A stretch of 64,000 nucleotides of DNA. It comes from Escherichia phage WPEC4. Positions 34,083-38,800 of this stretch are shown piece by piece. The stretch lies in sequence record PV682947.1. One strand, given 5' to 3'. Under the pieces are notes generated by a model. That model was given only the letters and a program-made list of their open reading frames with translations. It was not told where the DNA came from and searched no databases. Each line of letters starts with the position of its first letter. The first letter of the stretch is position 1. A program made the position numbers and the translations under genes.

Positions 34083-34140
34083 TTGACGTTCGCCAGGTGG
34101 CGGCATAATATTTACCACGTAGGGCGGCAATGGTGCCGCT
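34083..34140 (+). promoter_or_regulatory. Early-type sigma70 promoter P1 with conserved leader hairpin
   Basis: TTGACG-17-TAATAT-ttaccacgtaGGGCGGCAATGGTGCCGCT. Confidence 0.65.
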
Positions 34141-34160
34141 CACTATCTGGAGTTAAGATC

Positions 34161-34358
34161 ATGGCAACATTGCACATAGTAGCGAAAGCAGGACAAATCA
34201 ACGTAGTGGTAAACGGCTTTACTGAATTTAGTCACCCCCAGGACGACTATGAAACGGTTTTATCTTTCCTTGATTCTCTGTTAGAAATGAGCGTCATTAC
34301 AGAAGATCAGCACGCTACTAAGTGCGAACGTGTACGCCGTATCGCTGGCGAAGAATAA
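34161..34358 (+). CDS. small hypothetical protein (65 aa)
   Basis: ATG after GGAGTTAAG; follows P1. Confidence 0.5.
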   Translation: MATLHIVAKAGQINVVVNGFTEFSHPQDDYETVLSFLDSLLEMSVITEDQHATKCERVRRIAGEE

Positions 34359-34364
34359 AAAGTA

Positions 34365-34426
34365 TTGACAACAGGCAACAACCTGATAAGATGTATCACA
34401 TAGGGGCGGGAAGTGGTTTCCCGCTC
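34365..34426 (+). promoter_or_regulatory. Early-type promoter P2 with leader hairpin
   Basis: TTGACA-16-TAAGAT-gtatcacataGGGGCGGGAAGTGGTTTCCCGCTC. Confidence 0.65.
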
Positions 34427-34447
34427 ACAACAGAGAGATTAAAGATT

Positions 34448-34720
34448 ATGGCATCATATAGCGCAACAATGATCGTAACGGGTACCACTGGTAAACCTAT
34501 GAGCGGTGGCGGATCTTTCGCTAACATCAATATTGACGGGCGCTTATCCCTGGACGCAGCGATCGCCGTAGCGCGGGAAACATTTAAGAAAGAATGTAAT
34601 TTCAACAAGCAAGATTATTTAGGTTTCGCTATTGAAAAAACCGCGCGCTTTGTTGATTATAAAAGCCCGAAAATGGTTGATACTACACTAAAAGCGCAAG
34701 ATGTAGCATTTTTGCTTTAA
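34448..34720 (+). CDS. small hypothetical protein (90 aa)
   Basis: ATG after AGAGAGATTAAAG; follows P2. Confidence 0.5.
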   Translation: MASYSATMIVTGTTGKPMSGGGSFANINIDGRLSLDAAIAVARETFKKECNFNKQDYLGFAIEKTARFVDYKSPKMVDTTLKAQDVAFLL

Positions 34721-34723
34721 GGC

Positions 34724-34778
34724 TTGACATTAACGAATAATTTACTAATATGTTGCATAAGGCGGGAATAGTTCCCGC
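34724..34778 (+). promoter_or_regulatory. Early-type promoter P3 with leader hairpin
   Basis: TTGACA-16-TAATAT-gttgcataaGGCGGGAATAGTTCCCGC. Confidence 0.65.
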
Positions 34779-34796
34779 TATTTGTAAGGTGATAGA

Positions 34797-35054
34797 ATGT
34801 TTTACATCAAGTTAAAAGGTCACGTGATCGCGTTCAAAGATAATGCTTTTTACAGATTAGCAAAATATGCTTTAATCCATCCTCATTATGTTTATATAAG
34901 GGGGCGTGATGAAATAAATATCTTTGATCAAACAACATGCGAGAACATCGAGATCCGCAAGGTTGGCGTACGTGACTATCGTACATCTTTCTACCCTTGT
35001 AAGGATTCAGCAAGTCTTTTTAAAGTATGTCAATTGTTGAAAAAAGGTGGTTAA
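34797..35054 (+). CDS. small hypothetical protein (85 aa)
   Basis: ORF after P3. Confidence 0.5.
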   Translation: MFYIKLKGHVIAFKDNAFYRLAKYALIHPHYVYIRGRDEINIFDQTTCENIEIRKVGVRDYRTSFYPCKDSASLFKVCQLLKKGG

Positions 35055-35055
35055 T

Positions 35056-35613
35056 ATGGGGCGTGAATATGTGATCCAGTCTTGGGTAAAACATGAAGCA
35101 GATGATCCGCGCATCATTCCCGATCATCTTATCGATGAATCCACGGGCTATAGCGGTGAGCAAATAGGTAACAGGTTAGCACGTAGTAACGGCAACGTAA
35201 AAGCGCGTTGTGTGCGCCCTGGCTGGCTGGCAAATGGTAACGCTGATTTATCCAGTGCGGAAGATGCGAGCGACGGCGCGAAAGATAATCCTTTGTACAA
35301 AGTTGATCCGGCTTTTCGTGTCCTGGATGAATACCCCAGCAAGATAGCGGCGCTTGATGAAGCCCTAGAAAGTAAGCGCATCACCTGGACCGCTTACAAC
35401 ATGGCAAAAAATGTACTTGATGGTAAATTGATTCAAGCTGAAAGAAAATTAGCCAAAATTGCAGCCATAGCCCAGGAGGAAGACGAGGAGACAACGGAAG
35501 AGGAAGAGTACGAAGAGATCCCGCCGTTGTTGTGTGTTGATGCTTTTCCTGATTATCAGCCGACAGAGGAAGAAAAAAGGATCGCGCTAGAAAACTTTGA
35601 AAATAGTCTTTGA
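35056..35613 (+). CDS. hypothetical protein with acidic C-terminal region
   Basis: ATG after AAAGGTGG RBS; Glu/Asp-rich segment EEDEETTEEEEYEE. Confidence 0.5.
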   Translation: MGREYVIQSWVKHEADDPRIIPDHLIDESTGYSGEQIGNRLARSNGNVKARCVRPGWLANGNADLSSAEDASDGAKDNPLYKVDPAFRVLDEYPSKIAALDEALESKRITWTAYNMAKNVLDGKLIQAERKLAKIAAIAQEEDEETTEEEEYEEIPPLLCVDAFPDYQPTEEEKRIALENFENSL

Positions 35614-35667
35614 CATATCGCCGCCACTGGCATAATATTTACCACGTAGGGCGGCAATGGTGCCGCT
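35610..35667 (+). promoter_or_regulatory. Early-type promoter P4 with leader hairpin
   Basis: TTGACA-17-TAATAT-ttaccacgtaGGGCGGCAATGGTGCCGC (near-identical to P1). Confidence 0.65.
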
Positions 35668-35695
35668 CATAGTGAAATTATACAAGAGGCTTACA

Positions 35696-35800
35696 ATGAT
35701 TAATAAAGAAAATAGCTTGACGGTTGGAACGATTAACGCTATCATTCTAGCCGTTCCGTTTTGGATTGTAGTGTCGGTTATTATTTCAATCATCCTTTAA
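35696..35800 (+). CDS. small membrane peptide (34 aa)
   Basis: Unlisted ORF MINKENSLTVGTINAIILAVPFWIVVSVIISIIL following P4. Confidence 0.35.
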   Translation: MINKENSLTVGTINAIILAVPFWIVVSVIISIIL

Positions 35801-35810
35801 GGTACACACT

Positions 35811-36092
35811 ATGAGCAAGGTAATTAGTCATAAAGAGTTAAGCCCTACCCTTTCAATGAGTGAGTGCACCGATGGCTTTTGGCTGTATGATGATACGCGC
35901 GGCATGAATTTAGCTATGCGTGAAAAAACAGAAGAGGCGGCGTATATTGAAGCCCTGGAATACTACCAGGAACGACTAAAGGAAGTAGAAAACAATTATA
36001 ACAACCTAAAAGCGAGAGTAGATCACTTTATCAGCCAGGTGGCAGATGACGACGATGATCACTACTGCGAACGGTGCGGATCATACAGCTAA
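35811..36092 (+). CDS. small hypothetical protein (93 aa), Asp-rich C-terminus with CxxC
   Basis: ORF ending DDDDDHYCERCGSYS. Confidence 0.5.
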   Translation: MSKVISHKELSPTLSMSECTDGFWLYDDTRGMNLAMREKTEEAAYIEALEYYQERLKEVENNYNNLKARVDHFISQVADDDDDHYCERCGSYS

Positions 36093-37548: not shown

Positions 37549-37581
37549 CTTTTCGTTATAGCGCCTTATAATGGGCGCTAT
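37545..37581 (+). promoter_or_regulatory. sigma70 promoter P9 flanked by inverted repeat
   Basis: TTGACT-16-TATAAT with TATAGCGCC/GGCGCTATA palindrome bracketing the -10. Confidence 0.55.
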
Positions 37582-37615
37582 AGAGAAGAGAAACCACTAC
37601 TAACAAGGAAACATC

Positions 37616-37837
37616 ATGATCACTTTTGCTATTGTCGCCGTTGTTGCTGGTCAGGTTTACGTAAATGATACATTCACCACAGAAGACAAGGCAGCAGGAG
37701 ACATCACCGCCGCTTATAATGAGTGCAAGGCAGTAGAAAGGATGTTAGCGCCTTGTATGTTAATGAGTGAACGCCAGGACGGGATAACAGTATTTAGCAA
37801 CATTGAAACAGGGTACCAAATGGTAGTAACAAAATAA
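37616..37837 (+). CDS. small membrane protein (73 aa), MITF-start family
   Basis: MITFAIVAVVAGQVYV hydrophobic N-terminus. Confidence 0.5.
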   Translation: MITFAIVAVVAGQVYVNDTFTTEDKAAGDITAAYNECKAVERMLAPCMLMSERQDGITVFSNIETGYQMVVTK

Positions 37838-37840
37838 AAC

Positions 37841-37899
37841 TTGACATAGGTTTAATTTTCAGTAAACTGTTACACGTAGGGCGGGAACTGTTCCTGCTC
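37841..37899 (+). promoter_or_regulatory. Early-type promoter P10 with leader hairpin
   Basis: TTGACA-16-TAAACT-gttacacgtaGGGCGGGAACTGTTCCTGCTC. Confidence 0.6.
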
Positions 37900-37916
37900 A
37901 AAAAGAGAGAAAGACC

Positions 37917-38270
37917 ATGAAAGCACAAAATGCAATTAAAGAGTACATCCTTGCCGCTATCGATTTTAATGATTATGGTATTACAACAGAAAAAGAGAAG
38001 ATCGCGGAATTGATGCGCCGTTTTAATTCTGAATATTGGTACCCTGATAATCAATCACGTTTCAATTATAGCATTGTGAAAGCACTTGCATCATGGTTAC
38101 AAGGTTTACCATCAGATATTAATATCGCTTTCGAATATTGGGAAGTAGATCGCTTGTTAACATCTTGGGGATACATTAAAGAGAATAGCAGCGATGATAA
38201 AATCCAACGAGAAAGGGAAAATTATTGGCTTTATATTGCAGGTGTGATCCTTGCTTGCTCTTATGAATAA
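37917..38270 (+). CDS. hypothetical protein (117 aa)
   Basis: ORF after P10. Confidence 0.5.
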   Translation: MKAQNAIKEYILAAIDFNDYGITTEKEKIAELMRRFNSEYWYPDNQSRFNYSIVKALASWLQGLPSDINIAFEYWEVDRLLTSWGYIKENSSDDKIQRERENYWLYIAGVILACSYE

Positions 38271-38276
38271 TAAACC

Positions 38277-38330
38277 TTGACAATTTTACAAAATAGTTTA
38301 AATTAACAATATGGCGGCAATGGTGCCGCT
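38277..38330 (+). promoter_or_regulatory. Early-type promoter P11 with leader hairpin
   Basis: TTGACA-16-TAAATT-aacaataTGGCGGCAATGGTGCCGC. Confidence 0.55.
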
Positions 38331-38349
38331 AATATAAAGAGGAAACAAA

Positions 38350-38496
38350 ATGAATACATCTAATCGCGCAGAAAAAATTCAATCTTCCAAGATCCGCAAG
38401 GCCTGGAATGAAGAAGTGATCCGCAAAGGCGATAAGCGCAATAAAACAAAGCGCGGGAAGAGTGATAAATATAATTGGATGGATTTAGAGGACTAA
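38350..38496 (+). CDS. small basic protein (48 aa)
   Basis: Unlisted ORF MNTSNRAEKIQSSKIRKAW... with AGAGGAAA RBS. Confidence 0.45.
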   Translation: MNTSNRAEKIQSSKIRKAWNEEVIRKGDKRNKTKRGKSDKYNWMDLED

Positions 38497-38503
38497 CATA
38501 ACA

Positions 38504-38530
38504 AGGGCGCATCAAGCGCCCTTTCTTTTT
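38504..38530 (+). terminator. intrinsic terminator
   Basis: AGGGCGC-ATCAA-GCGCCCT followed by TTCTTTTT. Confidence 0.7.
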
Positions 38531-38551
38531 ACATGCAGAGGATAAACACAG

Positions 38552-38737
38552 ATGACTTTAAACGAGCTTAAAACAGCCTACAACGCAACATTAAAAATAG
38601 CCGTGCGTTACCGTGATGAGTACGGTTTTATTGCGCAGGGCGTGATCCTGGGCTTTTCTGACGATGGTTTGATCTATGTTGATGCACATCACAACAAGGT
38701 TAAACCTGAAAACGTCATCAGTATAAAATATCTTTAA
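38552..38737 (+). CDS. small hypothetical protein (61 aa)
   Basis: ORF after the terminator. Confidence 0.45.
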   Translation: MTLNELKTAYNATLKIAVRYRDEYGFIAQGVILGFSDDGLIYVDAHHNKVKPENVISIKYL

Positions 38738-38743
38738 AAATGG

Positions 38744-38800
38744 TTGACATTATAACCAGATTTACTAAGATGTATTGCATAGGGCGGGAATAGTTCCCGA
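38744..38800 (+). promoter_or_regulatory. Early-type promoter P12 with leader hairpin
   Basis: TTGACA-16-TAAGAT-gtattgcataGGGCGGGAATAGTTCCCGA. Confidence 0.65.

Follow-up and report, generated by a model that had tools for sequence, protein, structure and literature searches.

In a 64,000-nucleotide stretch of Escherichia phage WPEC4 (record PV682947.1), here called the window, a run of short genes between positions 34083 and 38771 is punctuated by twelve near-consensus sigma70 promoters on the plus strand, most of them followed by a G+C-rich hairpin, and a thirteenth copy of the same arrangement stands on the minus strand before a TerC-family gene. We put at about even chances a reading in which each unit is an early-gene cassette of ~90 bp, complete in itself, with a 5'-leader hairpin that would protect or insulate the mRNA, and in which the cassettes would double as homology for recombination. 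The units share one anatomy, the pairing of their stems has been selected, their sense strand is the one biased toward folding, the family is restricted to the array and the TerC gene, and its copies coincide with junctions at which genes have been gained or lost. A first-pass annotation had reported twelve promoters in about 4.7 kb, and all twelve were recovered where it had put them by reading the sequence and by a scan for paired -35 and -10 hexamers. What that reading missed is that the units are whole gene-expression cassettes, similar to the PeSL cassettes of T4-type phages, and that they coincide with gene gain and loss junctions.

The window comes from a Phapecoctavirus-type (phAPEC8-like) Escherichia coli myovirus of the subfamily Stephanstirmvirinae. 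A megablast search of positions 34000-39000 against phage records matched 226 records, nearly all of them E. coli myoviruses of the genus Phapecoctavirus with genomes of ~150 kb; identity was 92-94% to most records and 100% to Escherichia phage WPEC1 over 34405-38936. Each cassette runs in the same order, from an A-rich tract that holds the upstream stop codon through the promoter, the hairpin and an A-rich spacer to a Shine-Dalgarno sequence and an ATG, and it occupies the entire gap between two small genes. The stop codon of the preceding small open reading frame (ORF) lies 0-20 nt upstream of the -35 hexamer, its TGA falling twice inside a TTGACA or TTGACT hexamer, and the Shine-Dalgarno sequence and ATG follow ~75-85 nt downstream of the -35 in each unit. 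The array ORFs match no Pfam family, except for a DUF1033 gene specific to the window, and belong to PHROGs of unknown function; the genes driven by the cassettes are real, conserved phage families whose function is unknown.

The individual promoters vary somewhat more than the first-pass annotation had allowed. Its -35 hexamer, TTGACA, holds for 10 of the 12 array units, the other two having TTGACG and TTGACT, and its spacer of 16-17 bp holds throughout (16 bp in eight units, 17 bp in four). All four -10 hexamers that it gave are present (TAATAT and TAAGAT three times each, TAAACT twice and TATAGT once), and CATAAT, TATAAT and TAAATT, one each, have to be added to its list. The conserved discriminator that it described is borne out, the start-site region CAC(A/G)TA being kept across units. 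It had also placed a hairpin beginning GGGCGG after each promoter. Ten of the twelve array units do carry a strong G+C-rich hairpin, with the first paired base 7-11 nt past the -10 and RNAfold energies of -10.7 to -17.7 kcal/mol; the unit at 36841 is decayed and the one at 37545 has no downstream hairpin. With the TerC copy, 11 of 13 units have a stable stem-loop beside the promoter, in the same range of energies, and the stem begins 7-12 nt past the -10 in all but the unit at 37545. The thirteen units are as follows; for the array, the first coordinate is the start of the -35 hexamer, and lengths of encoded proteins are in amino acids (aa).

Cassette 1, 34083-34160, plus strand: -35 TTGACG 34083-34088; -10 TAATAT 34106-34111; hairpin GGGCGGCAATGGTGCCGCTC 34122-34141; Shine-Dalgarno sequence; ATG 34161 (65-aa ORF); the spacer holds an additional small stem-loop, 34090-34103.
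Cassette 2, 34365-34447, plus strand: -35 TTGACA; -10 TAAGAT 34387-34392; hairpin 34404-34426 (9 bp, -15.5 kcal/mol); ATG 34448 (90 aa); top match of the covariance model described below, 56.5 bits.
Cassette 3, 34724-34796, plus strand: -10 TAATAT 34746-34751; hairpin GGCGGGAATAGTTCCCGCT 34761-34779; ATG 34797 (85 aa).
Cassette 4, 35610-35695, plus strand: -35 TTGACA containing the upstream TGA stop; -10 TAATAT 35633-35638; hairpin 35649-35668, identical to that of cassette 1; ATG 35696 (34 aa).
Cassette 5, 36112-36193, plus strand: -10 TAAGAT 36134-36139; hairpin 36151-36172 with a one-base bulge; ATG 36194 (120 aa); left out of the seed alignment and recovered by the model at 40 bits.
Cassette 6, 36563-36641, plus strand: -10 TATAGT 36585-36590 (extended TG); hairpin GGCGGCAATGGTGCCGCC 36602-36619; likely ATG 36642 (59 aa, as annotated in relatives).
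Cassette 7 (decayed), 36841-36916, plus strand: -10 CATAAT 36864-36869; stem GGGAA-CAC-TTCCC 36880-36892 (-5.5 kcal/mol), only 5 bp because a G-to-A change makes a C.A mismatch; ATG 36917 (121 aa).
Cassette 8, 37289-37374, plus strand: -10 TAAACT 37311-37316; hairpin 37328-37351 with an internal C.A mismatch, which is a T-A pair in phi92-type copies; ATG 37375 (57 aa).
Cassette 9, 37545-37615, plus strand: -35 TTGACT overlapping the upstream TGA; -10 TATAAT 37567-37572, in the loop of an 11-bp inverted repeat TATAGCGCC-TTATAATG-GGCGCTATA, 37549-37590 (-25 kcal/mol if transcribed); no downstream hairpin; ATG 37616 (73 aa).
Cassette 10, 37841-37916, plus strand: -10 TAAACT 37863-37868; hairpin 37879-37899 with two G.U pairs; ATG 37917 (117 aa).
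Cassette 11, 38277-38349, plus strand: -10 TAAATT 38299-38304; hairpin TGGCGGCAATGGTGCCGCTA 38312-38331, its outermost pair U-A in place of G-C; ATG 38350 (48 aa).
Cassette 12, 38744-38822, plus strand: -10 TAAGAT 38766-38771; hairpin 38783-38802; ATG 38823, opening an ORF that enters a scrambled region starting at 38939.
Cassette 13 (isolated), 11204-11279, minus strand: -35 TTGACA 11279-11274; -10 TAAGAT 11257-11252; hairpin GCGGGGAATAGTTCCCCGC 11239-11221; ATG 11203.

The minus-strand copy that the first-pass annotation had seen before a TerC gene is real: the ORF at 11203-10229 encodes a 324-aa TerC-family membrane protein (Pfam TerC, E = 4e-40).

The hairpins have G+C-rich stems of 6-10 bp, their loops vary in sequence and length (ATGG, TGG, TAG, ATAG, GTGGT, TAC and others), and the z-score of fold stability against shuffled sequences averages -3.8. 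Their position relative to the promoter is narrowly set. Among 75 distinct copies, the first paired base falls 10-11 nt past the -10 in 55 (range 6-12), and nucleotides 5-9 past the -10 read CAC(A/G)T in 42 and TAC(A/G)T in 12 more. In E. coli, transcription starts as a rule 7-8 nt past the -10, at a purine preceded by a pyrimidine. By this rule the start is predicted at the conserved A or G 8 nt past the -10, which would leave 3-4 unpaired nucleotides before the stem and agrees with the earlier claim that the hairpin sits at the 5' end of the transcript.

Pairing in the stem is preserved while the paired bases change. In the window copies alone, 91.8% of cells are paired and four pairs show changes on both sides. 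We extended the comparison to four related genomes, ECML-183-2, Ro121c4YLVW, tuntematon and Mt1B1_P17, which with the window gave 78 aligned copies, 57 of them distinct. A plain MAFFT alignment put the 3' arms out of register and was replaced by hand-registered, N-padded alignments and then by model-derived ones. All three alignments lean toward the proposed structure, and for that reason we give two controls over the 57 distinct copies: pairing stands at 90.3% of cells, a level reached by 0 of 500 column shuffles, in which 76.2% are paired, and sliding the 3' partners by 1-3 columns drops it to 28-58%. The covariation noted in the first-pass annotation held up when these further copies were aligned, with compensatory changes at 6 of 10 pairs (for example, G-C in 22 copies and C-G in 20 at one position, and A-U in 37 and G-C in 17 at another). 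Because the structure guided the fitting of these alignments and common descent links many of the copies, these counts overstate the number of independent events. Distant copies of the type found in SSBI34 and CR9 keep the CACATAGGGCG junction, and their inner stems differ yet are complementary, as in GGGCGAC-ACAAC-GTCGCCC of Salmonella phage SSBI34. The pairing is maintained by selection, and the distant copies reinforce this conclusion.

The kind of change that the stem tolerates bears on whether the fold acts as RNA or as DNA. One stem position is G.U in 24 of the 57 copies, G-C in 20 and A-U in 11. Across 72 distinct hairpins there are 32 G.U pairs and 6 C.A mismatches; a C.A mismatch is a G.U pair on the opposite strand. 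The sense strand is more stable than the antisense strand in 54 of the 72 (Wilcoxon p = 3e-6). The G.U excess and the stability of the sense strand therefore favor a single-stranded, sense-specific fold, most simply the transcript, over a symmetric duplex site. The first-pass annotation had argued for a structural element, and a fold of the sense strand is what is expected of an RNA leader.

The family is as specific in its distribution as in its structure. A covariance model built from 11 hand-registered window copies had 12 matches in the window at E < 1e-3, 11 of them inside 34073-38805 and one at the TerC gene, and none at this threshold in the remaining ~59 kb. The first-pass annotation had suggested such a scan, and in the window its matches are confined to the array and TerC. 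The clustering of the units is not due to chance. A generic promoter pattern with mismatches is uninformative alone, its 56 matches against 46 expected not being above chance; the signal therefore resides in the composite unit. The layout recurs in the complete relative MG065650 (150.7 kb), in which 18 copies form one array at 7.3-15.6 kb and one copy is isolated, matching the array-plus-TerC pattern of the window. Genomes with the family have about 18-21 copies in one array, with about 19-21 counted in the homologous array of relatives, and the Justusliebigvirus phages phi92 and pEC-M2929-1AR.1 have 13 each. A few promoters of Vequintavirinae carry the element, in Cronobacter phage CR9 and Salmonella phage SSBI34. 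Queried with a single cassette, blastn returned only rV5-type phages among the matches listed. IMG/VR and the genomes of bacteria and archaea were also scanned for exact 15-mers (TATCACATAGGGCGG). Most matches were isolated and due to chance, real cassettes occurring only on two large viral contigs that are relatives of the window phage, and nothing in the bacterial and archaeal scan pointed to an origin in bacteria. The family is abundant in Stephanstirmvirinae, sparse in Vequintavirinae and absent elsewhere. MG065650.1 is one of 19 records labeled "Campylobacter phage" (UNVERIFIED, host C. jejuni) that are ~94% identical to the coliphage group and are classified as Phapecoctavirus; the C. 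jejuni host label is probably wrong or reflects contamination.

Cassettes also mark the places where the arrays of close relatives differ. We compared nine genomes, all against all, excluding WPEC1 as a reference genome since its record is rearranged and holds the same scrambled blocks as the window. Depending on the reference genome, 53-79% of insertion or deletion (indel) breakpoints fell in detected cassettes, which cover 21-25% of the arrays; this is 2-3 times the expected frequency (binomial p = 1.6e-3 to 8e-9 per reference genome), for breakpoints that are not independent, the same events being seen from several references. At several junctions the overlap spans 35-96 nt of shared cassette sequence flanking inserted genes. 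The cassette at 37289, for instance, is single in the window, and in relatives two copies flank ~870-880 bp with four ORFs, the junction overlap being 75-88 nt. The cassettes at 34083, 34365 and 37545 also bear junctions relative to other genomes. These long shared overlaps are a more specific sign that recombination may have run from cassette to cassette. A separate difference is the 308-bp segment at 35787-36094, which is absent from seven relatives; it holds a 93-aa ORF (35811-36092) with a weak Pfam DUF1033 match, lacks its own cassette and has its right junction at -17 of the cassette at 36112.

We propose the following mechanism. Host RNA polymerase would read the near-consensus sigma70 promoter and start at the conserved purine 8 nt past the -10, so that each mRNA would open with 3-4 free nucleotides and then the hairpin. 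So close to the 5' end, the hairpin would hinder RppH and the 5'-end-dependent attack of RNase E, and every short, monocistronic early mRNA would receive the same protected and insulated leader. Nearly every array gene being flanked by the same ~90-bp sequence, the cassettes would also act as portable homology, and recombination between copies could delete, insert or swap promoter-gene modules, as has been proposed for the PeSL cassettes of T4-type phages (PMC2839356, PMC4122927).

Several points weigh against this proposal. The bias toward the sense strand comes mostly from one inherited G.U position, and thus from few independent events. The fixed register between promoter and hairpin could have been inherited from a duplicated ancestor, and a model search favors copies that keep it. 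The searchable literature holds no mapped start site, RNA 5' end, half-life or transcriptome for this phage group. If transcription started at the A 6 nt past the -10, the free tail would be 5-6 nt and protection would be weak; work on ompA reportedly places a free 5' tail of 3-5 nt at the limit of protection. The enrichment of junctions is confounded, nearly every intergenic region of the array being a cassette and only whole-gene indels being likely to survive selection, so that such selection alone gives some enrichment. Some junctions, moreover, lie outside detected cassettes or have only 4-18 nt of homology.

A different role for the hairpin, which we regard as possible but doubtful, would be to act on read-through from the upstream module as a terminator, attenuator or 3'-end former, keeping the genes monocistronic and preventing a pile-up of transcription. 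An attenuator role could coexist with the 5'-leader role. Each cassette lies directly past a stop codon, the inverted repeat of the unit at 37545 surrounds the -10 and could be transcribed only by read-through, and this is the role proposed for PeSL stem-loops, one of which, from RB49, cut downstream lacZ about as much as rrnB T1 did (Arbiol et al., PMC2839356). The hairpins resemble intrinsic terminators in having G+C-rich stems of 6-10 bp and short loops directly past a stop codon; they differ in having no T-run, and a consensus terminator scan flagged none of them on the plus (coding) strand. The tails after the stem are A-rich and T-poor (48% A, 14% T), and in 119 of 126 distinct cassettes the 8 nt past the stem include no more than 4 T. 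By contrast, a textbook intrinsic terminator that looks bidirectional stands in the array itself, apparently where the phage needs one, past the 48-aa gene, at 38503-38523 (AAGGGCGC-ATCAA-GCGCCCTT followed by TCTTTTT). We therefore rejected the intrinsic terminator for want of a T-run. The attenuating RB49 stem-loop that Arbiol et al. tested also had no T-run, however, so its absence here is not decisive for attenuation. Against attenuation, a pure attenuator needs neither a fixed register with the -10 nor a conserved CAC(A/G)TA junction. The gene that follows the terminator, at 38552-38737, has no promoter cassette.

It is unlikely that CACATAGGGCGG and the hairpin form the recognition site of a phage or host protein, in the RNA leader or in DNA, that shuts off, processes or boosts early transcripts. 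Such a site would account for the conservation of the 5' arm and start-site junction in sequence, beyond what pairing needs, even in distant genera, and for an element that marks the array and TerC and not all promoters of the genome, as a regulon tag would. Variable loops and freely varying inner stems would be unusual for a specific site, a DNA operator would have half-sites at variable spacing and with G.T mismatches, and no candidate binding protein was identified and no match found to the array in Rfam (Rfam 15, no match at E <= 1 within 33500-38900). An operator for a dimeric repressor was rejected on the varying loop length and half-site spacing, the compensatory changes in the arms and the G.T pairs. 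Improbable too, in our estimate, is a broader version in which the CAC-R-TA-GGGCGG junction and hairpin would be a cis-acting RNA tag of an immediate-early host-takeover regulon (the array and TerC) in rV5-type phages, one that, beyond generic stabilization, a dedicated phage or host factor would read to time stability, translation or shut-off and that would make the genes mobile modules through cassette recombination. Very unlikely, finally, is a DNA-level inverted repeat (a cruciform or single-strand hairpin for recombination or promoter melting) or a functionless passenger of a duplicated promoter: cassettes do coincide with recombination junctions, and an RB49 crossover was mapped within the loop of its stem-loop (PMC2839356), but compensatory changes and 90% pairing speak against a passenger, and the G.U excess and sense-strand stability point to a sense-specific fold of a single strand.

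If the cassette reading is right, a second, unrelated lineage of large virulent coliphages has reached the T4-type solution for accessory early genes, in which identical, self-sufficient promoter cassettes double as recombination handles. The stem-loop would now lie inside the transcript, where it could control the fate of the mRNA rather than, or besides, read-through. The cassettes would explain why these genomes are most variable, and most assembly-prone, in the array region. They also offer a compact natural part for expression in E. coli, promoter and leader in one, and a rule for annotating about 20 early genes in each genome of phages now used for therapy, whose current records put start codons wrongly within the hairpin. 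One such start call is in the WPEC1 annotation (14427-14639), which begins the gene after the cassette at 36563 with an ATG in the hairpin loop (window 36609). Relatives and the position of the Shine-Dalgarno sequence point instead to the ATG at 36642, and the cassette model could mend such calls.

All relatives lose homology at 38938, where the array of the window ends. From 38939 to about 43500 the window consists of 77-80-nt blocks pieced together in either orientation, with exact duplications at period 77 (100% identity) and at 155-158, and with a perfect palindrome whose arms are 41657-41808 and 41809-41960. The sole Rfam matches, to microRNA models at 41760-41857, are caused by this artificial palindrome, the models matching both strands equally; the window has no tRNAs. 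These features suggest that 38939-43500 is an assembly tangle and not biology, the period of 77 pointing to a de Bruijn-graph (k = 77) artifact, and the right end of the array is therefore probably artificial. The WPEC1 record (PV659873.1; 23806-24162, 12223-16754) is identical to the window from inside the cassette at 34365 on and carries the first two cassettes in inverted orientation at a distance of ~10 kb. Its length is 161 kb where relatives have ~150 kb, and the same 155-nt blocks are scattered in it; either this genome was rearranged at a cassette or repeats caused a misassembly. Just upstream of the array, positions 33000-33500 are AT-rich (32% GC) and gene-poor. They hold iteron-like direct repeats (72 nt twice at 138-nt spacing and a 29-nt unit three times) and, at 33374-33453, inverted repeats of the AAATGAGAATGAT type, and a relative annotates repeat regions there. 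This may be an origin or a terminal or packaging region.

Among known systems, the lambda nut boxB and HK022 put sites are likewise RNA hairpins just downstream of phage early promoters. BoxB requires a defined loop and a boxA partner, and put requires two stem-loops over ~70 nt. The units here, unlike these sites, have one hairpin with variable loops, repeated before each short gene, and few terminators to overcome. We rejected both on anatomy, and the array has no Rfam match.

The 5'-terminal stem-loops of ompA and papA come closer to the function that we propose. Hairpins at the 5' end stabilize E. coli mRNA, RppH and RNase E needing single-stranded 5' ends (PMC3997798), and the ompA and papA stem-loops are stabilizers of this kind according to the work of Emory, Bouvet and Belasco (1992) as cited there. 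As in those leaders, the cassettes would place a stable hairpin a few nucleotides from the predicted 5' end, with the ribosome-binding region beyond it left unstructured. The free tail, predicted at 3-5 nt, exceeds the ideal length, and the hairpin belongs to a multicopy, sequence-conserved phage family and not to the leader of a single gene.

The nearest parallel is with the PeSL cassettes of the T4-type phages RB49/phi1, T4/PST and KVP40/nt-1 (Arbiol et al. 2010, PMC2839356; Comeau et al. 2014, PMC4122927). In these, a stem-loop accompanies a sigma70 promoter, with a stop codon in the AT-rich tract upstream and with a Shine-Dalgarno sequence; they cluster among the ORFans of hyperplastic regions and mediate the shuffling of modules (PMC2839356, PMC4122927). 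The class is further characterized by stem-loops that effectively terminate or attenuate transcription and by mini-circles excised when adjacent cassettes recombine. The WPEC4 units share the AT-rich tract holding the upstream stop and the consensus sigma70-like promoter (TTGACA in 10 of 12, a 16-17-bp spacer and a -10 of the form TAnnnT, with activity predicted from these motifs). They share the stable stem-loop in the same intergenic module (11 of 13 units), the crowding of copies into a variable region of small genes of unknown function (12 of 13 in 4.7 kb here and 18 of 19 in the 8.3-kb array of MG065650) and the indel or replacement junctions between close relatives that fall in cassettes. 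The position of the stem sets them apart. Published PeSL stem-loops, in five subclasses, precede the promoter, lie inside it or overlap it, and reach no farther downstream than just short of the start site. In the RB49 PeSLs that we inspected, the stem-loop either surrounds the -10 or stands between it and the -35, and the conserved leader that comes next is a different one; the RB49 stem-loop is therefore not transcribed from its own promoter, whereas here it would be a transcribed 5' leader. Twelve of the 13 units here have the stem at or beyond the predicted start, and the unit at 37545 alone has the RB49-type layout, with the -10 in the loop.

The phages belong to different lineages as well, Stephanstirmvirinae and Vequintavirinae here and Straboviridae there. 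In 20 kb of the RB49 variable region the covariance model found no sequence homology to PeSLs, its best match, at 21 bits (E = 0.004), reflecting the promoter consensus only; true copies score 30-57 bits. Hairpin-less early promoters of Vequintavirinae (CR9, SSBI34) share a leader, CATAGACAAACGAAAG, that resembles CATACCGAAACGAA downstream of RB49 PeSL promoters; going by this resemblance, the two may possibly represent an early 5'-untranslated-region motif shared across unrelated phage families. Published papers on Phapecoctavirus, phi92 and rV5-type phages report promoter counts only, one of them counting only 9 for a Phapecoctavirus, and the searchable literature, in which subscription journals are incompletely covered and an earlier description is possible, holds no description of the composite element for these phages. 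Having no homologous copy in RB49, the cassette family is therefore analogous and not homologous to PeSL, and the placing of its hairpin for transcription from its own promoter is a difference that bears on function. It is best classed as a family of PeSL-like promoter-hairpin gene cassettes in Stephanstirmvirinae.

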